From a virus (taxonomy: Duplodnaviria; Heunggongvirae; Uroviricota; Caudoviricetes), in IMG/VR virus record IMGVR_UViG_3300006226_001702, positions 11,064 to 75,063 of that record: DNA of 64,000 nucleotides; one strand, given 5' to 3'. The first letter of the stretch is position 1. Each line of letters opens with the position of its first letter. The notes under the pieces are model-generated. The model ran no database searches. It saw nothing but the letters and a program-made list of their open reading frames with translations, and had not been told where the DNA came from. The translations under genes were made by a program, and so were the position numbers. Positions 3,844 to 55,794 of the stretch are shown here, piece by piece.

Positions 3844-5925
3844 CTAAGTTCTAAATTTATTCACTTCTTTAGTGAGATTGTTGATTATATCCTTATTTTT
3901 GACACTAATATCATTGAGATGATTGATAGCCTCATTTATTTGAGCTGTTCCAGAAGCCATTTCATTCATTGACTCAGTTATCTCTTGTGACATTTTCTCT
4001 AAGTTTTCACTCTCTTTGATTACTTCAACAGCACCCTCATTCATTTCATTTGAGCCTCTCATAACTTCTCCAGTGACTCCTTGAATATGGGCTGTTGATT
4101 GTAACAATTGCTTGCTTCCAACTTCTTGTTCTTCCATTGAACATTTGATATTCTCTTCCTGTTCAGCAACAGTTTGCACGCTAGAATCTATCGTTTCAAA
4201 TTTGATTAAGACATCATCGGCTGATGAGTTTATTTCGTCAATGCTTTTCTTAATGTTCTTCAATACACTACTAATCGTTTTTGATTGTCCAGAAGATTCT
4301 TCAGCTAATTTACGAATCTCATTTGCAACTACAGCGAACCCCTTACCAGCATCTCCGGCATGAGCAGCTTCAATGGCGGCATTCATTGAGAGTAAGTTAG
4401 TTTGTGAAGCAATGTCTGCCATAACTTTATTGATATCCATTAAGCTTTCTGACTCTTTTAGAATCTCTTTAGCATCTTCAACAACCTTCTGTAAGCCTGT
4501 CTTACCAATTTCAGCTGCTTCTTTTAAGTCAGTTACATTCTTTGAGTTGTTCACTAATGATGTTGTAACTGAGCGAATGTTTGCAACCATCTGTTCGATA
4601 GCAGATGAAGATTGAGCAATATCATCACTTTGACTTTCAACATGAGCATTGAGCTTTTTGATGTTAGTCACGAGTTGGTCCATTGTGGCATGTGTTTGAG
4701 AAACTGATGCCGTTTGATTTATGACTCTGTCTTTTATGCTTGTGATATTTGCTGTTATTTCATTAACAGCTGCTGCACTTTCAGTCATATTAGAAGATAA
4801 ATCACTACCAACATTTGATAGTATCTCAGCTTCTTTCTTAATGATGTTAACTAAATTACGAATCTTACCTAAAGTTTTGTTGAAATAAACAGCTAAATCA
4901 GTAATTTCATCTTTGCCCTTTTCTTCAATTGATTTAGTTAAGTCGCCTTCACCTTCTGATATATCTTTTAATGTGTTGCTAACTTTTGTTAGCGGTCTAT
5001 TTATTGATAAACTGATTAGGATTGATAAGCCAACACCAACTATGAAACAGATTAAGCCAATAGTCAACACTAAAAACAATGCTGCATTTAATTCAGCATC
5101 AATTTCTGACTCTTCCATTGTTATGAATAATAACCAAGGTCTATCTGGAACTTCTGTGAATGCTACTTTATAATTTATGTTGTTCCAAACATAATAACCA
5201 AATCCTGATTCTTCTTGAATAGCCTTTTGCATCATTTCTGATATGCTTACAAAACTTTGATTAGTTCTAGCTTCTTCAAATATGTTAACTTGATTTAACA
5301 CATAATCATTATTTCTTGGATAAGCAATAAAAGTCCCTCTTGTATCAATCATGTAAGCATAACCACTTGGAAAACGGGTACCAATACCGCTAACTAAAAA
5401 TGAAATGTCTTCTCTAGCAACTAAAAGAGCTATGAGTTCAGTTCTCTCTTCATCAGCAAACACTGGAGCAACTAACATAACTACTGCATTGTTAGTTATT
5501 CGACTAATCAATACATTTGATATGAGCGGTTGCTTTGTTCTGTATGCTTCAATAATATAATCTCTATCACCTAAGTTACTAACAGCATCATCTGAAAGAT
5601 ATCTATAGGTTCCGTCTGGCCAAACCATACCGAGTTCTAAATAGCCAATTCTATCTCTATCGTGAATTAAACTGTGTTTAATCACATCATCCCATTCCAA
5701 AGTTCTCACTGATGGCCTTGACGCAATTTCAACTAAGATATTGAGTCGTCCATAGAGTTTTTCATTTATTAGTAAAGAATAAACATCTGTTCTAGTTTTT
5801 AGTTCTTCGAAATGGTATGATTGTATGCTTTTTCTTTTCGCATTTTGAACTGGGATAACTATGCTTAACGTAGTTAAGAAGATAATTATCCCAAACAAAA
5901 TGGGTATCTTAAACTTTAATTTCAT
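3844..5925 (-). CDS. methyl-accepting chemotaxis protein (Cache-like sensor, HAMP, MCP signalling domain)
   Basis: N-terminal TM helix, ~250-aa periplasmic region, second TM ([24 protein letters not shown]), HAMP segment, and canonical signalling hairpin [34 protein letters not shown]. Confidence 0.85.
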
Positions 5926-12567: not shown

Positions 12568-12944
12568 AAACATTTGAACAAATATACCAATTAAGAGAAG
12601 ACAAAAAACCATTCGTTGGTGATTGTAGAGATTTAGAAGTGTCAAACAATTTACCATGGGAAGATACAACTGAATGTGCTAATGACTTAGGTTATTGGGC
12701 TAGAATGGATGAATATGATGGCAGTCCAGAAGATAGTAATTACGAAAAAATAACAAAAGAAGAATTTTGGGAAGCTTGCGAAAGACATAGAAACCCACAA
12801 TTTGATTGGGAAAGAAAAGCTAAAGATTACACAGATGACTGGGATGAATACATTGACGGAGATAAAATCTATCTCAAACGATATGACGGAAACATTTATC
12901 TAATTTATGATGAAAACGAAGACGTTCATTATTTTTGGTGGTAG
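12564..12944 (+). CDS. hypothetical protein (N-terminal MKTFEQIY motif)
   Basis: 126-aa ORF, ATGA-coupled to upstream gene. Confidence 0.5.
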   Translation: MKTFEQIYQLREDKKPFVGDCRDLEVSNNLPWEDTTECANDLGYWARMDEYDGSPEDSNYEKITKEEFWEACERHRNPQFDWERKAKDYTDDWDEYIDGDKIYLKRYDGNIYLIYDENEDVHYFWW

Positions 12945-12946
12945 TA

Positions 12947-14329
12947 ATGAAGTTATTTGAAGAAATCTACACTGGATATCGTGGAATGTCAGGTGGTAGT
13001 GATGAAGGCAAAAACTTCTGGGAGCCAGGAGAATTTGATAAGCTCACTTCAAAAAAATCAGTGGGAAAATGGTACTCATCAGACCCAGAAGTTGCTGAGT
13101 GGTACGGTGATGGGAAAGTTATTAAGAACACATTAGAATTTGACGACCCAATGATTGTTGATGCTGAAGGTTCTGACTATCACAACATACAAATTGATGG
13201 AAAAAGATACAATTCAGATAAACTATCTTTAATGGCTCATGAAGATGGCCATGATGGATTAGTTATAGAAAATGTTAAGGACCCAAAAATAGTTGCTGAT
13301 ACTTATGTTGCATTAAAACCTAACACAATTAAAGAGTCAAAATTATTTGAACAGATATATAGAAGCAGCAAATTGTACTATCACATCTCTCCAAATAAGT
13401 TTGACAAATTTGAAAGACGAAACTCTTTTAGAAAAGGAGATGGTGCTGAAGAGTTAGGTGGGACATTTTTAACTCCACAGCTTTATATGATTAATGCTTA
13501 TTTCGCTAATTATCTTTCAACTAAACATAAGAGAAAAGAATATTATCTATACTACTGCAAATTGAAAAAAGACTTAAACATCTTTAATCCATCATCTAAG
13601 AAAGATAGAACATTATTGATTGATAAAATTAGAGAAAATCCAAATCAGTTTTTCTTGAATTATTCTATTAAACAACCACGAGCTGTTCTTCCAGATTTGA
13701 AAAGAGAGTTAGCCTCAATGTTTCGCTCACATAATTGGTCTCAAATAGAAAATCCAGAACTTACTAAAATGATTAAGAGCCTTGGATTTGATGGCTATGT
13801 TTCTCAAGAAAATGAAGTGGGAAATATCATGGTGTTTGACCCAACTAATATTGAAATAGTTAGAAGCAAATCAATGAAAGCAGAAGACTTAAAAGATAGT
13901 TGGTCAGAAAAAGCTTTTTCTAAAGATGAGTACGAACAAATAAATGATAGATACAAATGGAAAGACGAAAAAGAAAATAGATGGGACTCAGTTGATGATA
14001 ATGAGTTCAACGACTTAAAATATACGACATCAGATATTTATGAGATAACTACAGACACTGACTTAGAACCATTCGATCTACTTTCTATGGTCGACAATGA
14101 TGGTAAAATAATCACTAACAAAATGAGAGACGTTTTAGACCCAGCGATTCATTATGCTAAAAAGTTTTTCTTTGACGGAAAAGAATTTGATAGCGTTAAC
14201 GAATTAGAAAAACATCTTGTCAAAACTTTTGGAAAAAGTGATAAGGAGTGGGGCGAAGTTTTCTCTGGAATGCTTGGCGAAGATGATGAAGACGAGCATG
14301 ACGCTGGTGATGGTGACTTAATCTTTTAA
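12947..14329 (+). CDS. hypothetical protein (two copies of LFE(E/Q)IY motif)
   Basis: Track ORF 12935..14329; start placed at MKLFEEIY to match the N-terminal motif pattern seen in paralogous contexts; internal second copy SKLFEQIYRSS. Confidence 0.5.
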   Translation: MKLFEEIYTGYRGMSGGSDEGKNFWEPGEFDKLTSKKSVGKWYSSDPEVAEWYGDGKVIKNTLEFDDPMIVDAEGSDYHNIQIDGKRYNSDKLSLMAHEDGHDGLVIENVKDPKIVADTYVALKPNTIKESKLFEQIYRSSKLYYHISPNKFDKFERRNSFRKGDGAEELGGTFLTPQLYMINAYFANYLSTKHKRKEYYLYYCKLKKDLNIFNPSSKKDRTLLIDKIRENPNQFFLNYSIKQPRAVLPDLKRELASMFRSHNWSQIENPELTKMIKSLGFDGYVSQENEVGNIMVFDPTNIEIVRSKSMKAEDLKDSWSEKAFSKDEYEQINDRYKWKDEKENRWDSVDDNEFNDLKYTTSDIYEITTDTDLEPFDLLSMVDNDGKIITNKMRDVLDPAIHYAKKFFFDGKEFDSVNELEKHLVKTFGKSDKEWGEVFSGMLGEDDEDEHDAGDGDLIF

Positions 14330-32916: not shown

Positions 32917-33067
32917 TTAATTCCAACCATTCATCATCAGAAAATAAAAGTTCCTCTCTTCTTTCTTCTTTTCTTTTAGCATCATATCTCCTGGCAGCCT
33001 CAAAAAGAGCCTGCCATTCAGGAGTTGTTTTGTCAATTTCAAACATCAGTCGCCATTTTTTATGCAC
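32879..33067 (-). CDS. hypothetical protein
   Basis: 62-aa ORF. Confidence 0.3.
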   Translation of the reverse strand: MHKKWRLMFEIDKTTPEWQALFEAARRYDAKRKEERREELLFSDDEWLELNGTRLATQTVRE

Positions 33068-34356
33068 TTAAACACTGGGAAGCGAAGAGACTTAACACCA
33101 GCTGCATTTTGACTTTCCTCGAAATAAACTATTTCAGCAACTCTTCCTTTGAGATTGTTTCTGTTTTTCCAGAACTCATCTCTCTGTGCATCTGAAAAGC
33201 CGCTTCCGCATTTTACGATATTCCCTTTGTAACCAAGTTCAAAAGCTCCGAGGCGACCTTTGTGTCTGCCACGACCTTCTTGAAAACCAAGGATTTGCAA
33301 ATCAATATCAAAAAAGCTCTTCACTTTTGCACAAGCTATAGTGCGGTCCCATTCATAAAAACCATCCATGTCTTTTACGATGACGCCTTCCTTTTCGTTT
33401 TCCTTTGCCCACTCGAGGCCTTTTTCAATTTGACCAACATCATCACCGATGTAAAGACAAGGAAGGGGAAACAAGTAATCATATTTTGCAACACCGGGAC
33501 TTGAAGTTAAAGTTGCCTGGTATGCAGAATAACGCTCGCTGTATGTCATTGTGCATTTGCGATTTTCCCACTGCTTGAGCGGCATGTAATCATAAACGGC
33601 GAGACATACTTCCTTCGAACCACCTTTGCGAGTTGAATTGGAAACAAGTTTGTACTGCTGTTTGGAATCCATCTCCATAAAACCCACCGGCATCCTTTCA
33701 CCATCGAGCACAACATCTTGACCTTTATAAGCCTCAAGCACATCCTGTTCGATAAGCGGGAAGTTTCCAGTTTGGTCTTTTCCAGAGCGGGACAACACAG
33801 TAATTTTGTTTCCCTTTTTGAATATCGTCATTCGGAATCCGTCAAGCTTAACTTGATAACCGAACTTAGTTCCAACATAATAGTCGGGATTGGAAAAATA
33901 GTCAGCACAGAGCATCACTTCATGAATTGGAATAAAGTCATCACCAAAAACAGCGTTACAAGTTGTGCGGCCAATTCCCAGGCCCTTATCCCATGATTTT
34001 GAAGCAATGCGAAGAATTCCAATTTCAGTCTGTTCATCATATTGAGAAGCAAAGGCTTGGATAACTGCGGCATCAATATCACGCCCAGTGTTATTTTCAT
34101 TGAGGTACTCTAACATATCAATGAGGCCCCAATCTGCCCAGTCAATTGAATCAATGGCAGCAAGCTTAATCTGCTTTTGGAGCTTTCGTTCTTTGAGACC
34201 AGTTACTATGAGATTATCAAAATACCATTGAAGAGTGTGAATGAAAGCGCCGTCATCCTTGTACTTTCTGAGGACATCTTTCTTCGCATTCGTTCCTTGT
34301 GTGTTCTGAATTTCATAGAACATATCAATAACTTTTGAAGTGTGCTTATTTCCCAT
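33046..34356 (-). CDS. ATP-dependent DNA ligase
   Basis: Nucleotidyltransferase motif I KxDGxR: YQVKLDGFRMTIF. Confidence 0.75.
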   Translation of the reverse strand: MGNKHTSKVIDMFYEIQNTQGTNAKKDVLRKYKDDGAFIHTLQWYFDNLIVTGLKERKLQKQIKLAAIDSIDWADWGLIDMLEYLNENNTGRDIDAAVIQAFASQYDEQTEIGILRIASKSWDKGLGIGRTTCNAVFGDDFIPIHEVMLCADYFSNPDYYVGTKFGYQVKLDGFRMTIFKKGNKITVLSRSGKDQTGNFPLIEQDVLEAYKGQDVVLDGERMPVGFMEMDSKQQYKLVSNSTRKGGSKEVCLAVYDYMPLKQWENRKCTMTYSERYSAYQATLTSSPGVAKYDYLFPLPCLYIGDDVGQIEKGLEWAKENEKEGVIVKDMDGFYEWDRTIACAKVKSFFDIDLQILGFQEGRGRHKGRLGAFELGYKGNIVKCGSGFSDAQRDEFWKNRNNLKGRVAEIVYFEESQNAAGVKSLRFPVFKCIKNGD

Positions 34357-35174: not shown

Positions 35175-35786
35175 CTATGAAAGAAAAGCGGGTGGTCGAG
35201 CTAACTTTTCTAATAAGTTATTGTCTCGATCAAATTTTAAGTGTATGTATTTTCTGCTTGCTAAATAGTCTGCTAAATGTAACATTTGTTCATCGAATTC
35301 TTGTGGTGTGGGAGTATTACCTGATTTGTCTCTTGCTGCGTCCCATCTTCCCATGTGGCTTGCGCATAATCTTGCTTCTTCAGATAGACCAACTTCATCT
35401 AATTTGTCGGCTATATCTTTGGCATGATGTTTTGATGTATATTCACTTTCATCAGTTGCATATTTGTAAGCATCATGAGCAATTGCTGCAATTACGAGTG
35501 AGTCTTGATTTAGTTGTGGGAATGCATCACATATCGTCATTACGAATTTGACTACAGCTTTAGTGTGTCGTGATAGACCAAAATCTCCTTGTGAGTATTC
35601 TGGGTGGTATTTTCCAGTAGAAGAAGCTTGACCTGCAATATTTTTATATGCAGCTGTTCTCAAAACGTTCTCTAATTTTGCTCTTTTTTCTTTTGATTGA
35701 ATTAAGTCTAATTCTTTCATGTAAATTTTAACATTTGGTGACTCAAGCATGAGTGCTTCTTCATAGATTCTCTGGAACGTTTTCAT
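35175..35786 (-). CDS. HD-domain phosphohydrolase (paralog A)
   Basis: SSTGKYHPEY...LSRHTKAV...AAIAHDAYKY (H, HD, D metal ligands); N-terminal MKTFQRIY. Confidence 0.65.
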   Translation of the reverse strand: MKTFQRIYEEALMLESPNVKIYMKELDLIQSKEKRAKLENVLRTAAYKNIAGQASSTGKYHPEYSQGDFGLSRHTKAVVKFVMTICDAFPQLNQDSLVIAAIAHDAYKYATDESEYTSKHHAKDIADKLDEVGLSEEARLCASHMGRWDAARDKSGNTPTPQEFDEQMLHLADYLASRKYIHLKFDRDNNLLEKLARPPAFLS

Positions 35787-42987: not shown

Positions 42988-45975
42988 ATGTCTGATGGAA
43001 TTAGCCAAATAGTTGGCAGTGTTAGCGACGGAGCCCAACAAGTAACTGGTGGGCTTAATGCTGTTAATGCTACACTTGGCGCAATCAATGAGAAAATAGA
43101 AGGTCTCCATGAAACTAAAACTGAACAACTACAGGTCGAGGTAACAGCTCTTCCTGATTTTGTTCGTGACATTTATGACAAAGTTGCGCAAATAACTGAT
43201 GGCTTAACTGATAGTAAAGATATCCTTTCAGACATTCGTGACACTGGAGATGAACCATTAGAAGTTGGTGAAGGCCCAATTTACATTGGCGAGACTTTAG
43301 ATAGATTATTAGGTGACCAATCAATACTTGTCACTTCAATCAATGATATCCTTCAAAACTTAACTGGTGAACAAGCTGTAGCAGGAAATGCAACTGGGCC
43401 ATCGTTGGACTTTCAAGATGAGGGTTGGCAATCATTAGCTCAAACTATAGTTGCATTCGTTGATACGGCATCAGCAGCAGGCGCATCTGACATTCAGGCA
43501 GGGCTAACTGCCATTCAAAATGTGTCGCAATTCATTGATGAAGCTCAAGCTATTTTTGCTGATTTTACTGTTCCGGGTTCAGTGTTAGAACTTTCCACAT
43601 TCATTGGCCAAATTGAACCATTACTAAGTTCCATTCAAGAAGTAGCTGATTTTGCTGCAACTATTCCTGACTTTGAAGTTCCATCATTTGACAATGTGTC
43701 TCTGTTGTTTCAATCACTACAGACGATTACGACAGAAGCAAGCAATATATCAGCCATCTCAAGTGAGGCAATAGAAGGTTTGGGTTCAATTGACACATTC
43801 GTTGAAGCTGTACAACTTATTGCTAATGAACTACAAGATGTGGCTATTCCAGACATTGATGTTAGTGGACTATTTAGCGGGATAAATGAAGCAGCTGAAC
43901 TTGCTGCCAATATGAACTCACTTATATCAGATGCAAACAACACAGTAACTCAACTTGGCGGTTTTGTAACTGCCGTTAACGAAATAAGCGAACAATTTAT
44001 AGACTACTCAGATGCTGGTGCTGCCTCTACAATGATGGCTTCATTCATAACTGACTTGTCAACAGCTATAACAAGCATATCGGCAACTGGAGAATTAGCT
44101 GCATCATCAGTAGACAATCTTGCGGCTATCGCTGACTTTGTTGGTGGTATGAACCAACTATTTGGCACTTTAGCAATAGTTGAAGTTAGTGATGCTGTTG
44201 CAGTGTCTGATGAGATTCGTTCATTCTTCACTGACATCGCCGGCACATTTGAGTCGCTCAATGCTATTCAAGATCTAGTCACGGACGCAAGTGGAACTTT
44301 ACAGAACATTTCATCTTTCATTGTTGGAGTAGCCGAACTAACTGGTGCTGCCGATACATTGGAATTAGACGACTTTACTGAGTCAATGGTTGGCATTGCT
44401 AACTCATTGACATCATTAAGTACAACTCTATCAGCTCTTCAAGAAATCGATGAAACTCAAATAGAAGAAGCCGGCTCAATTCTCACTGAGGTTGCAGGAC
44501 TATTCACAACAGTTAGCGGACTATCATTAGCAGCAGAAGAAGCTCTATCATCAGTGCCTGCTTTAACAGATGCAGCTAGCCAAATAGCTGCTGTTTCAAC
44601 ATCACTCACTACGATGTTAAGTGCTGTTGATATGCTAAATGAAAGTGAGATAGATAGTGGCTCATTAGAACAGATAGCAAGCTTAATCACAACTTTCCAA
44701 TCACTGTCAATGGTAGCAGCAGAAAGCTTAAGTACCATGTCAGATTTAGACGACTTTGCAACAACAGCTACTGCCACATTAGCTCCGCTTCTTGGAGTTG
44801 TTGACTTACTAAATGACACTACAGACATACCAGCCAATCGCATTGGCGAACTTCAACAAATCATAGCATCGCTTGGCGAGCTTGGAGAAGTTGCAACACT
44901 ATCAGCAGCTCCATTAGATGACTTGAGTTCATTCTCAGAGCAAGCACAAGCAGCATTGGGCCCGCTACTTAATGTACTTCCAATAGTTAACGAACTATCA
45001 GACATAGTTCAAGAAGTGGACTTGAGCCAATTGAACAGGATAGGCGACATTTTTGGCAGGCTTTCAGCATTGGGAGAAGATACGACTCTAACTGGCAACA
45101 TCGAGAATTTAGCCGACATCACCTCATCAGTCAACACATCAATGGCCTCAGTAGCAGAAGCATTCAGTGCGGTGCAAGAACTTTCAATGTTCAGCGAGCA
45201 AGTCAACATGGGCGGTATCGCTGGAATGTTTGAGCAGTTGGGTGAGCTTGGAGATGTTGCATCCGAAAGCATGAACAGCATTGGCGATGTGAATGCAGTA
45301 GCAACTGAAATAGCTCAGGCTTTCCAATCAATGGGCGCAATCACTGACTCACTAGAAGTAGTTGGTGAACTCACTGAGCAGTCAGGCGTCATAATTGATG
45401 GCTTCAAAATGATGGATGATATGATGGATGTGCTTGGCAATCTTGCCGGAAAGAGTGAGATGCTTGGCGGAGTTGCTGGCTCATTGTCAAACATTGAACA
45501 GTTTACTGCATTGGGTGATTTGTTTGGCCAACTCGCATTGAACCAAGATGCATTAGCAGATAGCAAATCACTCACACAGGATATGATGGGCGCCATTCAG
45601 AACTTGATAGTCGTTGGCGAATTTGCTGATGAATTGGGCGACTTCAAATTGAACCTTGAAGAGAACTTAATCACACCGTTGTCTGGATTAGCAGAAGGGG
45701 CTGAGAACCTTCGCAACATTGCAAGTAGTGTGCGCGAGATCAATTCAGAATTGACTAAATTATCAAGTGATAATGCAGATACGTTAAAGTCACTGAACGT
45801 TGAAGATAGTGATAGCGTGTTTGGTTCACGAGGTGATAGTTTTGGAATGGAGCCTCAACAGCAGCAGAATGAGCAGCAAGGGAATGACCCACAGTTGGCA
45901 GCTATATTGCAGGAGTTGAGTGCGATTAAAGAAGTTTTAAGTAAGGAAGAAAGTTCCTCATGGTTGGAGAATTAA
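42988..45975 (+). CDS. tape-measure-like or internal virion protein (Ala/Ser/Leu/Thr-rich, 995 aa)
   Basis: Low-complexity helical composition with recurring LGELGEVA-like segments and a Gln-rich C-terminus; call rests on size and composition. Confidence 0.35.
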   Translation: MSDGISQIVGSVSDGAQQVTGGLNAVNATLGAINEKIEGLHETKTEQLQVEVTALPDFVRDIYDKVAQITDGLTDSKDILSDIRDTGDEPLEVGEGPIYIGETLDRLLGDQSILVTSINDILQNLTGEQAVAGNATGPSLDFQDEGWQSLAQTIVAFVDTASAAGASDIQAGLTAIQNVSQFIDEAQAIFADFTVPGSVLELSTFIGQIEPLLSSIQEVADFAATIPDFEVPSFDNVSLLFQSLQTITTEASNISAISSEAIEGLGSIDTFVEAVQLIANELQDVAIPDIDVSGLFSGINEAAELAANMNSLISDANNTVTQLGGFVTAVNEISEQFIDYSDAGAASTMMASFITDLSTAITSISATGELAASSVDNLAAIADFVGGMNQLFGTLAIVEVSDAVAVSDEIRSFFTDIAGTFESLNAIQDLVTDASGTLQNISSFIVGVAELTGAADTLELDDFTESMVGIANSLTSLSTTLSALQEIDETQIEEAGSILTEVAGLFTTVSGLSLAAEEALSSVPALTDAASQIAAVSTSLTTMLSAVDMLNESEIDSGSLEQIASLITTFQSLSMVAAESLSTMSDLDDFATTATATLAPLLGVVDLLNDTTDIPANRIGELQQIIASLGELGEVATLSAAPLDDLSSFSEQAQAALGPLLNVLPIVNELSDIVQEVDLSQLNRIGDIFGRLSALGEDTTLTGNIENLADITSSVNTSMASVAEAFSAVQELSMFSEQVNMGGIAGMFEQLGELGDVASESMNSIGDVNAVATEIAQAFQSMGAITDSLEVVGELTEQSGVIIDGFKMMDDMMDVLGNLAGKSEMLGGVAGSLSNIEQFTALGDLFGQLALNQDALADSKSLTQDMMGAIQNLIVVGEFADELGDFKLNLEENLITPLSGLAEGAENLRNIASSVREINSELTKLSSDNADTLKSLNVEDSDSVFGSRGDSFGMEPQQQQNEQQGNDPQLAAILQELSAIKEVLSKEESSSWLEN

Positions 45976-45976
45976 A

Positions 45977-47281
45977 ATGAGTTATGGTAGTACTAGAGTA
46001 GCAATAAATAGTGAAGGATTTGCAAATGCAGGAAAAATAACTGATGCTGTTTATACTTCAGATTCAGATGCAACTAGAATACTCCCAAGTGATAGTGGAG
46101 TGGCTATGACTAACCCAGTTTGGGAAACTTATGGCCAAAGTAAATATACAGATGAAAGAAATCATGCATATCAATATATAAATAAATATAAGGTAGTTGA
46201 AATAGCATTAGTAAATGCAAGTAGAAAATTTCCTCCTGATCTTACAAGTAATGAATGGGGGAATTGGAGAGAAACTAATGCTGGAGCAACACAACCAATA
46301 AAAGTTGATAAAAGTGTTTTATTATTAAAACAAGGACAAGGAGAAGGGGGAGACCAGAAGTTTAAATTTCGTTATACGAATGAATATGGAGATAAAATTT
46401 TTGATACTTTTTCAGGTGGATTTGCTCAAAATTTAAAAGGTGGGTTTGAATTACTTAGAAATATCGCTGATAAGTTTAAAGATAAAAAAGTTGATGCAGC
46501 TTCTGAGGCTGGAGAAGATGATGGTTCTTCAATGTCGACCGGCGGGAAATTTATGTCATTATATCATAAAACACCATCATGGGAAGGAATAACTCCATTA
46601 AGTTTTGAAGATACAATGGCTTTTGATTTTAATTTTGGACAGGCTGGTATTTTTTCTGCTGAACACGAGGTGGTTAGACCAATTTTAGCATTAGCTTTAA
46701 TATTTCTCCCATATTCTCCAGAAGGAGATAATTATTTTCTTGGCCCATTACCCACTGCACCTCATTTTTATTCAAATTATCTTTTAACTTTTGGACAACA
46801 AGAAGACACAACGGAAAAAAGAGAAGATTTTGGTAGAAGTTTTCTTCAAGAAACAAAACGAGCTGAAGCTTTTATGCTAGCAAAACAGGTTACAGCTGTA
46901 GAAAAGTCATTAGAAGGCCCTCTTCATAAAGGTAATACTAAAAGTTCAGATGGTTTTTCAACAGCTATATGTTTCAAAATTGGAAGAATGACTATCGGTC
47001 CTTTTATTGCTTCTACCATAGATTGGACTTTTGATTATAAACAAGTTGATGAGTTTGGTTTTCCATATAAAGGTTCTATTACATTTGGTGGTCTTAAATC
47101 AAATATAATTCCAACAGAAAAATTTGTTGGGTCATTTTTTCAAGGTCTAGATTTCACAGATAAATTAAATGACCCAGGTAATTCTGAAGTAGGTAGAGAC
47201 CCATCTTTATCTCCAGATGAAATATTAATGAATATGAATAATAATAGTGGTCATGATGCTAGATTAATGTCAATGTCTTAA
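45977..47281 (+). CDS. hypothetical protein (possible distal tail/baseplate protein)
   Basis: 434 aa, ATGA-coupled to the preceding large ORF. Confidence 0.4.
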   Translation: MSYGSTRVAINSEGFANAGKITDAVYTSDSDATRILPSDSGVAMTNPVWETYGQSKYTDERNHAYQYINKYKVVEIALVNASRKFPPDLTSNEWGNWRETNAGATQPIKVDKSVLLLKQGQGEGGDQKFKFRYTNEYGDKIFDTFSGGFAQNLKGGFELLRNIADKFKDKKVDAASEAGEDDGSSMSTGGKFMSLYHKTPSWEGITPLSFEDTMAFDFNFGQAGIFSAEHEVVRPILALALIFLPYSPEGDNYFLGPLPTAPHFYSNYLLTFGQQEDTTEKREDFGRSFLQETKRAEAFMLAKQVTAVEKSLEGPLHKGNTKSSDGFSTAICFKIGRMTIGPFIASTIDWTFDYKQVDEFGFPYKGSITFGGLKSNIIPTEKFVGSFFQGLDFTDKLNDPGNSEVGRDPSLSPDEILMNMNNNSGHDARLMSMS

Positions 47282-47507
47282 CGCTCAAATAAAGGTTCCA
47301 AATCATTAATGTAAGTCATCGTAATAACATCATGATTCTTTCCCCTTAACAGGACAATATTCTTATTAAAGATATCTTCAACAATCAAAGGAATTCCTCT
47401 CTTGAGGTGGCAAGGACAAATCAATAGCGGGCTATATCGTAAATAGGATCTAAAGAGATAGTAACTTGGTTTTGATAAATTTGCTATTCGAACTACAGTC
47501 CCAGGAA

Positions 47508-47699
47508 TTAGTAGTGCCTTCGTCTTCTTCGCTCACTATGCTGGTCAGTCATAAAATCATCAACAACTCGACGAACAGTTTCAAAATCTTCTATTCCTTC
47601 AAGTTGGTCAACAACTTCTTGCCAACCCTCATATAGTTTGTACATGTCAGTTTCAGAATGCTTATATTCGGACTGTAGATAGTTATATGCTATTTCCAT
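47508..47699 (-). CDS. small hypothetical protein
   Basis: 63-aa ORF with ACTAATTATTATG start context. Confidence 0.35.
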   Translation of the reverse strand: MEIAYNYLQSEYKHSETDMYKLYEGWQEVVDQLEGIEDFETVRRVVDDFMTDQHSERRRRRHY

Positions 47700-47704
47700 A
47701 ATAA

Positions 47705-48292
47705 TTAGTCCACAATTATTTGGTTCAAATCATCGAACTTAATTGTGATTACCTTTTTAGCACAAAGATAATCAGCATATGCAACAATATAGTGCTCGGG
47801 TTTAGTGGGTGGCTTGCCTAACTCTTTTCCATTCTTATCAGTGTGCCAACGACTCATGTGCGTGTCAACTATATCGGCTATCAATGGCCAATAAATAGAA
47901 TCAGCAAACTTGCTTCTAATAGCATCACCCATCATAATAGCATGTTCATTGTGAATGTACTTCTGATCTTTTTCAGTGTACTTTTTCATATCGTGAAGAA
48001 GAGCACCAATGTAAATGATGTCCCATTCTATGTCATTGTCATACTTTGGGTCTTGCTGTAACATTAGTTCAGTCAATTTACAAACGGCTCTCGTGTGTCT
48101 TAAAAGACCACCCACCCCGTTTGACCAAGGTGGGTGATATTTCCCGCTGCTACTTGCCGGCGCATCACAAATGTAATCAGAACATTCCATTAGAAGTGCT
48201 TTACAATCGATGCGTAGATATTCTGTTTTGATTTTTTCAATTTCAGTCTTAAAACAGTTTAGTATTCTTCTTCCCATAAGTCTGGATGGCAA
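47705..48292 (-). CDS. HD-domain phosphohydrolase (paralog B), candidate RNA 3'-end healing enzyme
   Basis: SSSGKYHPPWS...LLRHTRAV...ALLHDMKKY; paralogous to 35175..35786. Confidence 0.65.
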   Translation of the reverse strand: MPSRLMGRRILNCFKTEIEKIKTEYLRIDCKALLMECSDYICDAPASSSGKYHPPWSNGVGGLLRHTRAVCKLTELMLQQDPKYDNDIEWDIIYIGALLHDMKKYTEKDQKYIHNEHAIMMGDAIRSKFADSIYWPLIADIVDTHMSRWHTDKNGKELGKPPTKPEHYIVAYADYLCAKKVITIKFDDLNQIIVD

Positions 48293-48591
48293 CCAATTGG
48301 TCCGTCATTTGTAGATAATTCTTGATCTTCAAATGGGAAGACACCATTTCTTGCCGCTATCTCCTTCTCGCTTCTCAACTTCATCCAAGTTGGTTTTGGT
48401 GCAATCACTTTGAAACAACATATTGGTACGTTGTTCAAATGGAGATATTCAGCTGCTGCTCTATAATCCTCAGGAAAACGAGATACATATATTTGATAGT
48501 TCAACCTAACGTCTTCTGAGAAATAAAAATATACAATTTCATCTGCGTATTCTAGGTAAACAGACTCTTCATTAAGTCGTTCTATAATCAT
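48259..48591 (-). CDS. hypothetical protein
   Basis: 110-aa ORF within the RNA-repair operon. Confidence 0.4.
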   Translation of the reverse strand: MIIERLNEESVYLEYADEIVYFYFSEDVRLNYQIYVSRFPEDYRAAAEYLHLNNVPICCFKVIAPKPTWMKLRSEKEIAARNGVFPFEDQELSTNDGPIGCHPDLWEEEY

Positions 48592-48618
48592 TTTAGGCTC
48601 CTATTCATTTAGTTCAAT

Positions 48619-49131
48619 TTACCTATTTACGTTAATGAAATCAATCAGCTTTTCTATATCTCCATCATATTTATGATACACCAAATCACTATTTTCAATT
48701 CTATCAATACAGTTGTGATATTTAATGAACTTATTCTCGATGATACTATCAGTCAAAGCTGATCTATCCTTTCCCTTTTCTAAATCAGTTGCTACGCGCT
48801 TCTGACAAAGCTTCAAATCTTTACTGTCTTCCATTAAGATGAAAATGACTTTACATGGAAAAATCGCTTTGTATCTAACGAGATTCTTAAACGATATATT
48901 CATCGCATTAAAGTACACTGTCTTATCATCGATGATAGCATCTAAAGCTCTTTCCTCAGCAATCTTGAATATCTTATGTCCGTCACGCTGTTCATTCACA
49001 TCACCGAAAACTTCTCTTCTAATATCGTCTGGTTCTATATTAACGAGATCGTCTAATCGTTTTTCCAACTGCTCTTTTAAGTGGCTTTTCCCACTACCAG
49101 GAATTCCCACAGTCATAACTACTAATGCCAT
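48619..49131 (-). CDS. polynucleotide 5'-kinase (T4 Pnk kinase-domain-like P-loop protein)
   Basis: MTVGIPGSGKSHL...IEPDDIRREV parallels the T4 Pnk N-terminus LTIGCPGSGKST...NINRDDYRQS; no DxDGT phosphatase domain. Confidence 0.6.
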   Translation of the reverse strand: MALVVMTVGIPGSGKSHLKEQLEKRLDDLVNIEPDDIRREVFGDVNEQRDGHKIFKIAEERALDAIIDDKTVYFNAMNISFKNLVRYKAIFPCKVIFILMEDSKDLKLCQKRVATDLEKGKDRSALTDSIIENKFIKYHNCIDRIENSDLVYHKYDGDIEKLIDFINVNR

Positions 49132-49799
49132 TTATCTACTCCACTAACATATACTTCGTTCTTTTCCCATTTTTTAGTCCAATGCTCATCCGTTTGAACA
49201 TGATTAGCTCTAACGTACTTAGCGATATTTTCATCCCAATCAGCTTCAAGAAACTCATCGGCATTTCTTAACACATAACCTTCATGATGCTCTTCATTAA
49301 ATGCATCTTTCCAAACTCTTTCAGGCAAACCTCTTGGCATTGCGCTATTTAGAATAACAGGCACAGTTTCCAAATTAAGCAATTCACACCATTCCATCGT
49401 TTCTTCCCAAGATAGAACGCCAAACTTATCCGTAATCATAAACACTTGAAATAGCGGAACATGAGAATATCTAATCGAATGACAGGCATACAAGTTTTCA
49501 CCAATGATTCTCATTTCAGGTGGAATGTTACAGAACAATTTTCTCGCTATGTAATTGATGTCCCGTCTCCATTTGGCTGATTGATCACTGTCTAAACTTC
49601 GAGCATGAACGTAATCATAACCAATTACAGTGCATTCTCCATCCATTTTTTCAGTCATTAGAATTGGCCCAGAAGGACAGAAGATGTCATTCTTTCTATC
49701 ATCTTTAGTCAATCCCTTCGAGTTCGGTAAGTGTCCAATGCGAGGAAACTTACGCTTGTACTTTAGTGCTATCTCCGAGGAAGTTTCCGTCTTCATCAA
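49122..49799 (-). CDS. ATP-dependent RNA ligase (Rnl2/Rnl5-like adenylyltransferase domain)
   Basis: Motif I TEKMDGE (KxDG) and motif IV HHEGYVLR. Confidence 0.6.
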   Translation of the reverse strand: MMKTETSSEIALKYKRKFPRIGHLPNSKGLTKDDRKNDIFCPSGPILMTEKMDGECTVIGYDYVHARSLDSDQSAKWRRDINYIARKLFCNIPPEMRIIGENLYACHSIRYSHVPLFQVFMITDKFGVLSWEETMEWCELLNLETVPVILNSAMPRGLPERVWKDAFNEEHHEGYVLRNADEFLEADWDENIAKYVRANHVQTDEHWTKKWEKNEVYVSGVDKWH

Positions 49800-50478
49800 A
49801 CTTTTCAGGATTATCCCACCTGCTCCAATATAAGTCTACATATTTTCCATCATCATCTTGTAAATCGTATGAATAGTCCATGCGATGATCCACTTCTAAT
49901 TCGTCGGCATCACCATACTCATCAGAACGATTTGCAACATAATTTCCTTCACCAAATAACCAATGGAAAATTGAGTCATTGTCTTCAAAAATCATCCAGT
50001 AATTATCAGTTCTATCAAACCACTGTGACTGATGATCGATATGCCCGCTCATTTTGGCCTTATTCATTGAATAGTTTTCTTCAGTTAAAAGCCAATTGAT
50101 GTTAGTCACATTTGGAATGTTGTCTTTAATCACAGTTTCAAGCATCAATACTTCATCAACATCTCTGTCATAAATCTTTCTAACATCATCACTCATATTC
50201 TTAACGAAGTCTTTATGAAAATCAGCAGCTTTATTTATCCTAACTCTTTGAAGTCTTTCCGCTAAAAGCCAAGCAAAGTTTAGTCGGCTACCGAAGTCTT
50301 TGTAGTTTTCTCGCTGCCTACCAAAATCAACCTCACCACCAAATGTGAAAGGCACATATAAAGTGCTTGGGTCTTTATACATCTTTGGCATGTGAGGAAT
50401 TACATAAATACCTTCTCCACCAAAAACGAGAAACGAACTACTTGAACTGTTACTAACGAAACCTGCTCTAACTTTCAT
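49750..50478 (-). CDS. MKIRxGFVSNSSSSSF-family protein (member 4, 242 aa)
   Basis: MKVRAGFVSNSSSSSFLVFG; body homologous to member 3 over the TFGG..F...Y..F..RLN segment; acidic C-terminus. Confidence 0.6.
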   Translation of the reverse strand: MKVRAGFVSNSSSSSFLVFGGEGIYVIPHMPKMYKDPSTLYVPFTFGGEVDFGRQRENYKDFGSRLNFAWLLAERLQRVRINKAADFHKDFVKNMSDDVRKIYDRDVDEVLMLETVIKDNIPNVTNINWLLTEENYSMNKAKMSGHIDHQSQWFDRTDNYWMIFEDNDSIFHWLFGEGNYVANRSDEYGDADELEVDHRMDYSYDLQDDDGKYVDLYWSRWDNPEKFDEDGNFLGDSTKVQA

Positions 50479-50479
50479 C

Positions 50480-50722
50480 TTAATCTCCTATATAAGAAAA
50501 TCGGCTAACCCATTCTCCATTAACATTTACTTTTTCAGTCCACATTTCAATTGGACGAGCCCAAATTTGTCCACCTTCAGACTGATATATGACTAACCAG
50601 TCATCAGTTTCCGTGTGTCGTGCTGTATGAATGGCTGTGTAAATGCCACCCTTATAATGTTTATACTTGCCCATTTTCAGCATTTTTAGCCTCCTCATAT
50701 TGTTCGGCCGAAGTGTACACAT
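50480..50722 (-). CDS. DUF1653-like small protein
   Basis: KYKHYKGGIYTAIHTARHTETDDWLVIYQSEGGQIWARPIEMW pattern; true start probably MGKYKHYK. Confidence 0.45.
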   Translation of the reverse strand: MCTLRPNNMRRLKMLKMGKYKHYKGGIYTAIHTARHTETDDWLVIYQSEGGQIWARPIEMWTEKVNVNGEWVSRFSYIGD

Positions 50723-53420: not shown

Positions 53421-54647
53421 CTATACTTCGTATTCCGGGCAGCTTCTTTTTGATTCACGCAGTTTCATTCTCCATAATTCTAATCCAAAATCCCAATGAT
53501 GTTTGAAACGAACAGGCTTGTCTTTGAAATCTTCCAATGATTCACCGTTGATAACATCAAATTTGTAGCAAGGTTTCTCATTAAAGCTACAGGGATAAAA
53601 GTTTCCGTTAACATCTACATAAGAACTGAATAACCCGCTTTCACATGGTTCAATCATCTGAATCAATTCTTTCAGTCTTTCTTCTTGCATTTCGATATAA
53701 GCATTTCTGGCAAAGCTTCCACCATCTCTATCTGGGTCAGAATCTTTTTCCCATCTTTTGCCAATCTTTTCTGACACATCATCTCGTGCCCAAGCTTCAA
53801 AACGATTTGCACTACAGGAATCAAATCCAAAACCAATTGAGTTTGACATAAATAGATTAACGAGATTAGAAAAGTGTTCATCACTAAGCCGGTTGAATCC
53901 CTTTTCAGCTCGACCGCACTTTTTGAGCCCGAGCAAGACGACTGCATTTAGTCCTTCAAATCGAGCATCAGTCTTAATCATTTCGACTAACTTAAGACAT
54001 TCCTCATAAGTTTCTTCGGATATCATAAAGTGAATGTTTATTTGTTGTAGCGTTTTCTTTATGAGATAAAAGGGGGATGAATCATCCCTTTCAGTTTTAA
54101 GTTTGTTAAGCAAATCCACAGTGTCAGCAAGCACTTCAAAATCAGAATGGTAGCTTATTGCAACCCCACCAAAGTTCTGGACTATCTTAACTGCATTTGC
54201 CATAGTGAGTTGTGCAACTGTTCCATTTGGTATGATGTGATTTTCTCTGAGGTAGTCACACATTGCCCACAAGTCTGGGTTGGCTTCTGCTGTGCTGTCT
54301 AAACCAAAAGCAACTTGAGTTAGTTGCTGATTAAAGTTGACTTCATCTATCACCTTTTTGAAAGTTTCAAGAGACATATTAGTTCCCTTGGGTGTGTTTG
54401 ACTTGTAGCAGTAAGCGCAGAGTTTTCCATCAATTCCGTTGCACTTAGTTGTGACTTCAATGTCGAGGATCTCTGGCCCATAAATTGACATCTCTGGGTC
54501 ATCTTCTTCTTTTTCTCCCCAGCGAGCAAAATAGCCATTCTTTAAGTTGAAGTCATAGTTGTAGTTTTTTGACCTAAAACATTTTCTGCTTCCTTCAAGA
54601 AAGACAGTGTAATCAGTTGCTCTTTTTAAGAAATTCATTTCCGCCAT
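53421..54647 (-). CDS. radical SAM enzyme with C-terminal SPASM/twitch-like Cys-rich domain (non-canonical Cx7CxxC)
   Basis: ILDIEVTTKCNGIDGKLCAYCYK resembles the radical-SAM cluster loop (canonical CxxxCxxC with a 4-residue insertion); C-terminal CGRAEKG...DSCSANRF...EPCESG...VDVNGNFYPCSF...PCYKF includes the SPASM-type GxxxPC motif. Confidence 0.55.
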   Translation of the reverse strand: MAEMNFLKRATDYTVFLEGSRKCFRSKNYNYDFNLKNGYFARWGEKEEDDPEMSIYGPEILDIEVTTKCNGIDGKLCAYCYKSNTPKGTNMSLETFKKVIDEVNFNQQLTQVAFGLDSTAEANPDLWAMCDYLRENHIIPNGTVAQLTMANAVKIVQNFGGVAISYHSDFEVLADTVDLLNKLKTERDDSSPFYLIKKTLQQINIHFMISEETYEECLKLVEMIKTDARFEGLNAVVLLGLKKCGRAEKGFNRLSDEHFSNLVNLFMSNSIGFGFDSCSANRFEAWARDDVSEKIGKRWEKDSDPDRDGGSFARNAYIEMQEERLKELIQMIEPCESGLFSSYVDVNGNFYPCSFNEKPCYKFDVINGESLEDFKDKPVRFKHHWDFGLELWRMKLRESKRSCPEYEV

Positions 54648-54856: not shown

Positions 54857-54994
54857 TTTGTTTCCTCATGTATAATATAAGACGGTATGCGCAAGCTTTC
54901 CAGTACAACGTGTGTGGCCGCTTGCAAAAATTTAGAAGGGAAATGATTTGATGATTCATATTCCATAATTCTCCCTAAAATTATGTTTTTGTAG

Positions 54995-55067
54995 CTCCCC
55001 AGGGAGGGTTCGAACCTCCATCAGCAGAGTCAAAGTCTGCTGTGATAACCAATTTCACTACCGGGGA
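54995..55067 (-). tRNA. tRNA-Gln (anticodon UUG)
   Basis: Acceptor TCCCCGG/CTGGGGA, D-stem GTGA/TCAC, anticodon stem GCAGA/TCTGC with loop CTTTGAC, T-arm GGAGG-TTCGAAC-CCTCC; 73 nt. Confidence 0.8.
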
Positions 55068-55696: not shown

Positions 55697-55721
55697 ATTT
55701 TAGCTCCCTTAAAAGTGATAG

Positions 55722-55794
55722 TCGGGAATCCCGGACTCGAACCGGGGACATCTTGGTCCCAAACCAAGCGGTATAGCCACTAACCTAATTCCCG
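55722..55794 (-). tRNA. tRNA-Pro (anticodon UGG)
   Basis: Acceptor CGGGAAT/ATTCCCG, anticodon stem CTTGG/CCAAG with loop TTTGGGA, T-arm CCCGG-TTCGAGT-CCGGG; 73 nt. Confidence 0.8.

Follow-up and report, generated by a model that had tools for sequence, protein, structure and literature searches.

The window analysed here, a stretch of 64,000 nucleotides of DNA from a large uncultured phage, contains four co-directional, tightly packed minus-strand genes encoding a ligase, a kinase, an orphan protein (u110) and an HD-domain phosphohydrolase. These, together with the genes on either side, are listed in Table 1. The preliminary description, made from the sequence alone, had named four minus-strand open reading frames, and all of them are present where it placed them.

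Table 1. Genes of the cassette and its immediate neighbours in the window
Feature	Coordinates	Strand	Remarks
Ser-rich protein	49750..50478	(-)	242 aa; N-terminus MKVRAGFVSNSSSSSF; overlaps the ligase start by ~47 nt
Adenylation-domain-only ATP-dependent ligase (PF09414, DRB0100 clade)	49122..49796	(-)	224 aa from ATG 49796
Stand-alone P-loop kinase of the 5'-OH polynucleotide kinase type	48619..49131	(-)	170 aa; without phosphatase domain
u110, orphan protein	48259..48591	(-)	110 aa; between kinase and HD
Stand-alone HD metal-dependent phosphohydrolase, SPO1 gp32.6-like	47705..48277	(-)	190 aa from ATG 48277
Basic-tailed protein, C-terminal RRRRRHY	47508..47699	(-)	63 aa; follows HD after a 5-nt spacer

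For two of the genes, the open-reading-frame list and the public gene call differ at the start codon. The list begins the ligase at TTG 49799 (225 aa) and the HD gene at TTG 48292, whereas the gene call and the homologs begin at ATG in both cases, the HD protein starting with MGRR. For this reason the ATG codons are probably the real starts. The junctions within the block are tight or overlapping and are accompanied by Shine-Dalgarno sites: the ligase stop and the kinase ATG share a 10-nt overlap (ATGGCATTAG), GGAG being located 8 nt upstream, and u110 has 19 nt in common with HD. The exception is the kinase–u110 junction, which has a spacer of 27 nt containing AGGAG. Judging by the junctions as read from the sequence, the genes are thus overlapping or coupled at most positions, as had been suggested, but not at this one. 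Promoter and terminator scans remained at chance level, and PADLOC returned only weak, generic Cas3-HD matches. The window also encodes three tRNAs (Gly-TCC, Gln-TTG and Pro-TGG), in line with the earlier remark that the phage carries its own.

A nucleotide search against deposited phages gave no match, and the phage is therefore without a close cultured relative. The cassette genes are clearly genuine rather than spurious reading frames: all have conserved homologs, and synteny of the block extends to three other, diverged contigs (L007, L011 and L106) at 38–56% amino-acid identity. The kinase–u110–HD order is kept in all four contigs, window included, and survives kinase duplication, ligase loss and u110 replacement. 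In L011 the three genes are retained with no ligase at the block position within the 12.6 kb examined, and the u110 position in L106 is occupied by a 510-aa protein whose C-terminal region is u110-like. The 63-aa gene is co-conserved with the block: in L007 and L106 the HD region is followed by homologs of 73 aa, and L011 has a gene of 73 aa. Whether the 63-aa protein forms part of the functional unit is uncertain. On the other side, the Ser-rich protein, which belongs to an expanded family of paralogs, is a possible member of the operon.

The ligase matches PF09414 (RNA_ligase, E = 4.5e-22, Pfam) over residues 45–196 and carries both motifs by which it had been recognized as an RNA ligase, K51-M-D-G and E173-G-Y-V-L-R. 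It has 37% identity to Deinococcus radiodurans DRB0100 over residues 17–210 (E = 2e-23, tblastn), a locus that we confirmed by its translation (MRVKYPSIPHL..., with K40) and by its neighbour genes. The two proteins share family, length class, the N-terminal K[YF]PR..HL motif and motif I. The DRB0100-type signature (K[YF]PR..HL, TEK[ML]DGE, HARS, GEN, EGYV.R and AK[YW]VR..HVQTDEHW) is complete in the phage protein, where it reads KFPRIGHL, TEKMDGE, HARS, GENLY, EGYVLR and AKYVRANHVQTDEHW. The family alignment has 32 invariant columns in common, and the ligase motifs, including IV, V and the HARS element, are invariant in it. K51 aligns with K40 of DRB0100, the proven adenylylation site (PMC1997131), and is the predicted AMP acceptor.

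The protein comprises the nucleotidyltransferase domain only (224–225 aa, in a class of about 205–225 aa) and lacks OB, C-terminal and HNH modules; its AF2 model is a single domain. The fold is nearest to the RNA ligases Rnl2, Rnl3 and Rnl5, with DNA ligases scoring lower, and profile search gave no indication of a DNA ligase fragment, since the protein is full length for its family and closer to RNA ligases. Moreover, the phage encodes a separate full-length ATP-dependent DNA ligase with an OB domain, so the cassette ligase is not the replicative one. Among the RNA ligases, it is not Rnl1-like, having no PF09511 match and no C-terminal tRNA-specificity domain, nor is it of the Rnl5 type (Naegleria/Deinococcus DraRnl), in which an OB-like domain stands N-terminal to the nucleotidyltransferase, as it has only about 45 residues before motif I and no PF21189 match. 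The T4 Rnl2 type combines the nucleotidyltransferase with a C-terminal nick-sealing domain, which is absent here; in T4 Rnl2, the C-terminal domain is required for part of the ligation pathway. Relatives of about 340 aa carry an N-terminal extension that is an HNH nuclease module and not an OB domain, and the possibility that u110 is such an extension split off from the ligase was accordingly rejected. Ligase relatives in CcrSC, Atu_ph07, ME3, XacN1 and L009 have no kinase or HD gene among the neighbours checked.

Two members of the clade have been purified. DRB0100 forms ligase-AMP but joined none of the DNA or RNA substrates tested, even with its operon partners (PMC1997131), and the ligase of Runella slithyformis, which we infer to belong to the same family, self-adenylylates but sealed none of its tested substrates (PMC6097658). 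An AMP adduct without ligation, formed here by a protein that has the nucleotidyltransferase domain only, could mean that the 'ligase' is in fact an adenylyltransferase, marking or capping a nucleic-acid 5' end or another molecule, with the kinase and HD protein preparing or reversing the mark; capping had been brought up as an option by Blasius et al. (PMC1997131). We consider this very improbable, as all ligase motifs are invariant, including IV, V and HARS, and the steady partnership of the family with 5'-kinase/3'-phosphatase enzymes fits sealing best. The negative results in vitro may reflect an absent substrate or partner, and a missing partner protein was indeed proposed for sealing by DRB0100 (PMC1997131).

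The kinase, described earlier as T4-Pnk-like, matches AAA_33 (E = 4e-9, Pfam) and the PHROG family phrog_505, 'polynucleotide kinase' (E = 1.5e-10). As a single sequence, its best PDB matches are T4 Pnk and Pnkp1; as a family profile, it finds Clostridium thermocellum Pnkp (CthPnkp, 1.7e-30), Pnkp1 (4e-16) and T4 Pnk (6e-16), with thymidylate and adenylate kinases at 3e-3 or worse. The profile search thus speaks against a dNMP or nucleoside kinase, and the profile places the protein in the polynucleotide 5'-kinase clade of T4 Pnk, CthPnkp and Pnkp1. Because PSTK, a kinase of tRNA-bound serine, also scores 4e-18, the profile leaves the substrate class unproven. Motifs and profile agree: the P-loop GIPGSGKS and D35-D-I-R38 are present, K15, S16, D35 and R38 share T4 Pnk numbering, and the lid arginine is R123 (R126 in T4). 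All five residues are conserved, and the family alignment shows no variation in GIPGSGKS, D35, R38 and R123. The Walker-B-like position (N75) is Asn in the four phage kinases versus Asp in the cellular ones. As had been pointed out, the phosphatase of T4 Pnk is missing, with neither a DxDxT motif nor a HAD match in the 170 residues. The protein aligns throughout with the kinase domains of cellular fusions and, over 163 residues, is 30% identical to the kinase portion of the Pnk-HD protein of Bacillus phage vB_BcoS-136 (E = 8e-17, BLASTP); by these alignments, it appears orthologous to the kinase domain of HD-Pnk and Pnk-HD fusions.

Such fusions are the usual company of the ligase family. In cellular genomes, a same-strand kinase+HD fusion lies directly beside the ligase in 55 of 80 loci, either as HD-Pnk downstream (29) or as Pnk-HD upstream (26); of 10 fusions that were sampled, 9 had both domains confirmed by Pfam. 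Because the ligase family habitually adjoins fused kinase+HD end-healing enzymes, the general heal-and-seal logic put forward in the preliminary description is strongly reinforced. The arrangement had also been regarded as notable in itself, which does not hold, since it is a variant of described systems (PMC7824862, PMC1997131, PMC6097658): the cassette is a split-gene version of a heal-and-seal operon known from bacteria and other phages.

The closest bacterial counterparts differ from the phage cassette in how the parts are joined. The Deinococcus operon DRB0100-DRB0099-DRB0098 encodes the small ATP-dependent ligase, a PARG/macro-type protein and an HD-Pnk, and its genes are likewise co-directional and overlapping. 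DRB0098 has the same two domains as the cassette pair, HD and AAA_33 kinase, but combines them as HD-then-kinase in one 413-aa protein, whereas the window has two proteins, kinase then HD. A PARG/macro gene separates ligase and HD-Pnk in Deinococcus, whereas the phage has no macro gene and carries u110 between kinase and HD; the Deinococcus HD appears to come from another subfamily, and the host is a bacterium rather than a phage. In the Runella cluster, the ligase reading frame overlaps that of a fused HD-2',3'-phosphoesterase/5'-OH-kinase enzyme (PMC6097658), an arrangement found in 29 of the 80 loci scanned. The Runella cluster also contains Tpt1 and MTase-HIT genes, neither of which occurs among the genes checked near the split phage cassette or in the Bacteroidota loci examined, and a match to the complete four-gene cluster was not found in those Bacteroidota loci.

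Among phages, Rhodothermus phage RM378 and Tsamsa-like Bacillus phages likewise combine a polynucleotide kinase with an HD phosphatase, and jumbo-phage RNA-repair sets have been described that contain Rnl2-family ligases, Pnk and occasional HD-type phosphatases (PMC7824862). The RM378 PNK consists of HD plus kinase, and in the Bacillus phages an RNA ligase directly precedes the Pnk-HD fusion. In these phages the two domains form single kinase-HD polypeptides, and the ligases are Rnl1-like or OB+RNA_ligase proteins of 386–418 aa; here the domains lie in separate genes (170 and 190 aa) that flank one of 110 aa. CthPnkp, the best solved relative of the kinase profile, follows the same heal-and-seal logic, but its kinase is part of a fusion with a metallophosphoesterase and a ligase domain of its own, and it acts together with the Hen1 methyltransferase; neither these fused partners nor Hen1 are found here.

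The HD protein was identified correctly at the outset: it matches PF01966 above the cut-off (E = 1.2e-8, Pfam) and phrog_5889 (E = 9.3e-31, PHROG), and has 31–35% identity to SPO1 gp32.6, c-st CST053 and others. Across 15 sequences, ASSSGKYHP, H66, H100-D101, H117, H145 and D174 are invariant, and the metal-ligand set (H...HD...D motif) is complete. A resemblance to E. coli Cca (PAKWHPE...HT motif) was rejected, hhalign giving no convincing alignment (probability 1.7%). A second HD paralog is encoded at 35175–35786, near the DNA ligase in the replication module. The cassette protein is not a diverged duplicate of it, as the two have similar scores against an outgroup-only HMM (141.7 versus 114.4 bits).

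The relation of this protein to the HD halves of the fusions is distant. BLASTP detected no significant similarity, and hhalign gave E = 2.8e-5 against Pnk-HD and 6.4e-5 against HD-Pnk (probability 64–74%), values obtained without an unrelated HD family as control. An HMM of the window HD family matched 11 of the 55 fusions (best E = 7e-8) but not RM378, and the HD domains of RM378 and the Bacillus phages appear not to be SPO1 gp32.6-like (hhalign E ~3e-5). By these comparisons the subfamily appears to differ from that of the fusions, and the likeness to be at superfamily level. This raises the question of whether ligase and kinase cooperate alone, with the HD protein acting in nucleotide metabolism or as some other phosphohydrolase, placed here by the shared ancestry of the four phages, and with 3'-end healing done elsewhere or not needed. 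The wider distribution of the HD type speaks for this: of 80 other viral loci that carry it, 78 lack any kinase or ligase within 5 kb, and linkage to a kinase is seen only in the window, L007, L011 and L106. In SPO1-like phages the family is found among replication genes. It is not enriched near DNA ligases, since just 7 of 80 viral loci, all of them SPO1-like, have such a gene within 5 kb, and the idea that it travels with any ligase was rejected. The cassette HD is also an ordinary member of its family, no more diverged than the paralog in the replication module. Nevertheless, the kinase–u110–HD order has survived at 38–56% amino-acid identity, u110 and HD share the 19-nt overlap, and the kinases of this clade are HD-fused in most cellular and Bacillus-phage cases, which makes the kinase–HD partnership the rule. 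We therefore regard a bystander role for HD as fairly unlikely. Based on the neighbourhood and the fused relatives, the HD protein would be a 2',3'-cyclic/3'-phosphoesterase, comparable to the Runella HD-Pnk, described as a 2',3'-phosphoesterase and 5'-kinase (PMC6097658), and to the RM378 PNK, mentioned with 3'-phosphatase activity in a passage of the Deinococcus study (PMC1997131).

Taken together, the cassette probably constitutes a phage break-repair ('heal-and-seal') module, homologous to the bacterial small-ligase/HD-Pnk operon, with RNA the most likely substrate. A nuclease of the transesterifying type would leave a 2',3'-cyclic phosphate or 3'-phosphate, which the HD protein with its bound metal(s) would hydrolyse to a 3'-OH. 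The stand-alone kinase would move the γ-phosphate of an NTP onto the 5'-OH end, with K15 and S16 predicted to bind the nucleotide, D35 to act as general base, and R38 and R123 to contact phosphate. The RNAs concerned would most likely be those of translation, such as tRNA, after cleavage by host ribotoxins in the infected cell. The sequence itself shows the gene structure, the domain identities, intact catalytic residues, the family to which the ligase belongs and the conserved linkage, whereas the enzymatic activities, the joint action of the three proteins, the choice of RNA over DNA and the biological role are inferred.

DNA is the other candidate substrate. Host nucleases, damage or the processing of phage DNA could give rise to 5'-OH and 3'-phosphate DNA ends, which the kinase and HD protein would clean and the ligase would seal, perhaps aided by an accessory factor. 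Radiation strongly induces the homologous Deinococcus operon, which has been discussed in terms of DNA repair, and DRB0098 phosphorylates a DNA oligonucleotide (PMC1997131); the title of Munir & Shuman 2017 calls the Runella HD-Pnk a 'DNA/RNA end-healing enzyme' (PMC6097658), and the HD subfamily usually resides in phage replication modules. However, the fold and profile of the ligase are RNA-ligase-like, with DNA ligases lower, and OB or other DNA-binding domains are missing from it; the phage already has a complete DNA ligase of the ATP-dependent kind, and DRB0100 sealed no DNA (PMC1997131), so we hold repair of DNA to be unlikely.

For repair of RNA, the preliminary description had invoked T4 Pnk/Rnl1, which reverses tRNA cleavage by host anticodon nucleases, and this parallel stands for function only. 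The proposed activities are the same (5'-kinase, 3'-end healing and ATP-dependent sealing) and the kinase domains are homologous, but the T4 phosphatase is a HAD domain (DxDxT) fused to the kinase, whereas the window has a separate HD protein, and T4 Rnl1 (PF09511, with a tRNA-specific C-terminal domain) belongs to a different ligase family from the DRB0100-clade enzyme found here. The T4 function against PrrC is proven; for the window cassette, reversal of PrrC/RloC-type tRNA cleavage is plausible.

u110 has no match in Pfam, PHROG, NCBIfam or PADLOC, is absent from the cellular ligase loci, and has 4–5 true relatives among 1.84 billion representatives; matches to 16–17 stretches of giant proteins were dismissed as artefacts, being eukaryotic gene models with identical tandem repeats. 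In the phage lineage it always lies between kinase and HD, as in L007 and L011. It is conceivable, although quite improbable, that u110, the 63-aa basic-tailed protein or the Ser-rich 242-aa protein serves as a lineage-specific accessory subunit for substrate binding or activation of strand joining. If so, the operon would be a ready-made system with which to reconstitute the activity of the clade and find its true substrate, a question dating from 2007. The operon supplies three small conserved candidate partners for this.

The cassette represents a phage case in which the kinase and HD halves of a widespread bacterial end-healing enzyme are separate proteins beside the usual ligase family of the fused form, and favours the view of ligase, polynucleotide kinase and HD phosphoesterase as one functional unit moving between cells and phages. 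For phage biology the advance is incremental, because RNA-repair gene sets of large phages are already documented; for biochemists, single-domain proteins are easier to study separately.

The window belongs to a metagenomic contig of 183 kb (ENA ERZ27257348 k141_647176); a nucleotide search with the window found no close relative among deposited phages. The four minus-strand open reading frames of the preliminary description are present at the coordinates it gave; for the ligase and HD genes, the called gene products and the homologs point to ATG starts rather than to the TTGs upstream. Reading along the sequence, the 242-aa gene preceding the ligase overlaps its start by ~47 nt, the ligase stop and the kinase ATG overlap by 10 nt with GGAG preceding that ATG, a 27-nt gap containing AGGAG lies between the kinase and the gene for the orphan 110-aa protein u110, the 3' end of u110 overlaps the HD ATG by 19 nt, and 5 nt separate HD from the gene for a 63-aa protein. 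Scans for promoter and terminator consensus gave only chance-level matches. The 63-aa protein (C-terminus RRRRRHY) and another short protein after HD, with a CPC(H/K) motif (...LICPCH.KR...TMTY..DLE..YER), are conserved in L007 and L106, two contigs with versions of the block.

Coordinates of the cassette genes and of other features (window positions unless a locus is named)
Feature	Position	Strand	Remark
Ligase	49122-49799	-	start ATG 49796, 224 aa
Kinase	48619-49131	-	
u110	48259-48591	-	
HD	47705-48292	-	start ATG 48277, 190 aa, MGRR...
63-aa protein	47508-47699	-	
CPC(H/K) protein	47278-47424	-	
DUF1653 protein	50480-50722	-	
DUF1653 counterpart, SPO1	L017, 3185-3487		
Second HD paralog	35175-35786	-	SPO1 gp32.6-like; 28% identical to cassette HD, E 1e-23
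ATP-dependent DNA ligase	33046-34356		
Tandem kinase duplicate	L007, 7186-7698		
Ligase-family member	L023/L024, ~5001-5627		
Receptor-like protein	3844-5925	-	693 aa
ART-PolyVal protein	12935-14329	+	464 aa
Repetitive protein	42988-45975	+	995 aa
Radical-SAM-like protein	53421-54647	-	408 aa
tRNA-Gln	54994-55067		
tRNA-Pro	55721-55794		

Versions of the block occur in three more contigs at 38–56% amino-acid identity. L007 (= L107, 329 kb) carries the Ser-rich protein, ligase, kinase, a second kinase paralog, u110, HD and the small proteins; L106 (261 kb) carries ligase, kinase, a 510-aa protein whose C-terminal part is u110-like, HD and the small proteins; and L011 (21 kb) carries the Ser-rich protein, kinase, u110, one reverse gene, HD and the small proteins, with no ligase found within the 12.6 kb fetched. 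Kinase, u110 and HD are the constant core, u110 lying between the other two in L007 and L011 and the 510-aa protein taking its position in L106. u110 has no family in any library searched, and the cellular ligase loci lack it. Searching 1.84 billion representatives exhaustively with HMMER gave 4–5 small relatives, and large multi-stretch matches were rejected as eukaryotic tandem-repeat artefacts.

The sole Pfam match of the ligase is RNA_ligase (PF09414, E 4.5e-22), and PHROGs annotates it as 'RNA ligase'. Because most of the ~2,800 relatives retrieved by word-indexed search are 205–225 aa long, the 225-aa protein is full length, and the possibility raised earlier that it is a DNA ligase fragment does not hold. 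A second size class of ~340 aa bears an N-terminal HNH module. Over 24 aligned sequences 32 columns are invariant, including motif I (K51-x-D-G-E), HARS, R97, G100-E101-N102, F117/F120, E173-G174...R178 and K194...R197. Fold comparison with RNA ligases gave scores of 12.5 for archaeal Rnl3, 12.4 for Naegleria Rnl5, 11.3 for the trypanosome editing ligase and 10.6 for fungal Trl1. Among the neighbours checked for relatives in other jumbo phages there was neither a kinase nor an HD gene. On the contigs L023/L024 (110–220 kb) the surroundings of a family member are tRNA-centred and include no kinase and no HD; it lies beside class-I tRNA-synthetase-like, Thg1 (tRNA-His guanylyltransferase-like) and NAD-salvage genes.

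The kinase matches AAA_33 in Pfam (E 4e-9) and 'polynucleotide kinase' in PHROGs (E 1.5e-10), and a single-sequence search of the PDB places T4 Pnk and Capnocytophaga Pnkp1 first (E ~0.005). K15, S16, D35 and R38 are catalytic in T4 Pnk and have identical numbering in the window kinase; G9, G12, G14, K15, D35, R38 and R123 are invariant in an alignment of 13 sequences (the window kinase, its three relatives in phages and the kinase portions of fusion enzymes). This profile is mostly cellular and therefore describes the family to which the window kinase belongs. It matches the Clostridium thermocellum Pnkp kinase domain best (E 1.7e-30), then the tRNA-Sec kinase PSTK (E 4e-18), Pnkp1 (E 4e-16), T4 Pnk (E 6e-16) and mammalian PNKP (E 5e-8), with thymidylate and adenylate kinases no better than E 3e-3. 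dNMP, thymidylate and nucleoside kinase families in Pfam and NCBIfam gave no match at E up to 0.1, which speaks against the preliminary description's alternative of a dNMP or nucleoside kinase; its remark that a DxDGT-type phosphatase is missing is borne out, the 170-aa protein having no DxDxT motif. The four phage kinases read FNAxN where cellular ones have DATN, with Asn for the Walker-B-like Asp. In the L007 tandem duplicate the D-x-x-R motif reads D-L-E-D-I-K (Arg to Lys), and this copy is possibly inactive or re-purposed.

Scanning one genome per prokaryotic species for the ligase family gave at least 584 loci, the best 80 of which were analysed by purpose-built HMMs. Among these 80, 55 ligases are directly beside a same-strand gene with kinase and HD domains: in 29 it is HD-then-kinase (~380–445 aa), just downstream of the ligase and often overlapping it, and in 26, all from Firmicutes, kinase-then-HD (~320 aa), just upstream. 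Eleven of the 80 are long HNH-type ligases that lack this neighbour, and another 14 have no such neighbour or are on truncated contigs. Pfam confirmed AAA_33 and HD in nine of ten sampled neighbours; the first example met was in a Deltaproteobacteria genome. The arrangement is published for two organisms, including the Deinococcus radiodurans DRB0098-DRB0100 operon (PMC1997131). The Deinococcus megaplasmid ligase (MRVKYPSIPHL..., K40 within VVTEKLDGE; 37% identical to the window ligase, E 2e-23) has a PARG/macro-type gene and then a 413-aa HD + AAA_33 gene after it. Among phages, Tsamsa-like Bacillus phages have an RNA ligase (Rnl1-like, or OB + RNA_ligase) directly before a kinase-HD fusion, the window kinase being 30% identical to the Bacillus phage kinase half (E 8e-17), and Rhodothermus phage RM378 encodes a 361-aa HD + kinase protein, which PMC1997131 cites as a viral PNKP with 3'-phosphatase activity in its HD domain.

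The cassette HD protein matches PF01966 (E 1.2e-8, above cut-off) and phrog_5889 (function not annotated; E 9e-31). Its active site looks intact, since the metal-ligand residues are invariant in 15 family members (H66, H100-D101, H117, H145, D174), which also share a distinctive ASSSGKYHP motif. It shows no significant BLASTP similarity to the fused HDs and probably belongs to a different subfamily, with hhalign giving E 3e-5 to 6e-5. Deposited phages encode relatives of it, among them SPO1 gp32.6 and Clostridium phage c-st CST053; the gene lies near replication genes in c-st and, in SPO1-like phages, between DNA polymerase and exonuclease/DNA ligase genes, where it immediately follows a DUF1653 gene. 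The window's second paralog, an equally typical member, is two small genes upstream of the DNA ligase. A kinase or window-type ligase lies within 5 kb of HD in 2 of 80 viral contigs, the window's two closest relatives only, and a DNA ligase in 7 of 80. Because linkage to kinase or ligase is so rare, the family as a whole is no marker of RNA repair, and the HD-kinase link is specific to the window's lineage. A DUF1653 gene is present in the window block and directly precedes the family HD in SPO1 and the viral loci L184 and L185, which hints at an association.

Homology and the repeated fusion and neighbourhood pattern suggest that the three enzymes most likely form a heal-and-seal unit, in which HD would remove a 2',3'-cyclic or 3'-phosphate, the kinase would phosphorylate the 5'-OH and the ligase would join the ends via K51-AMP. 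RNA is the more likely substrate, as the ligase resembles RNA ligases and has no DNA-binding module, the phage encodes its own DNA ligase, and comparable phage cassettes are regarded as a means of countering host ribotoxins (PMC7824862). Radiation induces the Deinococcus operon, an indication of DNA repair. Purified DRB0100 and Runella ligases formed ligase-AMP and sealed none of the substrates tried (PMC1997131, PMC6097658); the Runella enzyme probably belongs to the same clade as the window ligase, judging by the common gene arrangement. These non-sealing enzymes, the apparently differing HD subfamily, the absence of the ligase from this position in L011, the lone jumbo-phage ligases and the radiation induction all weaken the heal-and-seal reading. 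Action against PrrC/RloC-type anticodon nucleases, as proposed in the preliminary description, is a candidate role by analogy and in view of three tRNA genes in the window; PADLOC found no relation of the cassette to known defence systems. The observation made in that description is confirmed, and its interpretation is supported in part. Neither a T4 Pnk/Rnl1 homolog set nor a new kind of system, the cassette represents a known heal-and-seal system in split-gene form, and it is useful chiefly for approaching an old question: which ends DRB0100-type ligases really join, and if a partner is required.

Elsewhere in the window, the 995-aa protein is Ala/Ser/Thr/Glu-rich and internally repetitive with a faint DUF948 signal, and is probably structural; a 434-aa protein without family comes after it, and L011 and L007 have a similar large gene at the same relative position. 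The 408-aa protein, just downstream of the tRNA-Gln and tRNA-Pro genes, resembles radical-SAM proteins weakly (E 5e-4, which falls short of the Pfam cut-off). The ADP-ribosyltransferase domain of the ART-PolyVal protein matches at E 4.4e-8. By its dCache, HAMP and MCP-signalling domains (MCPsignal E 7.6e-31), the 693-aa product is a full methyl-accepting chemotaxis-type receptor on an otherwise phage-looking contig.
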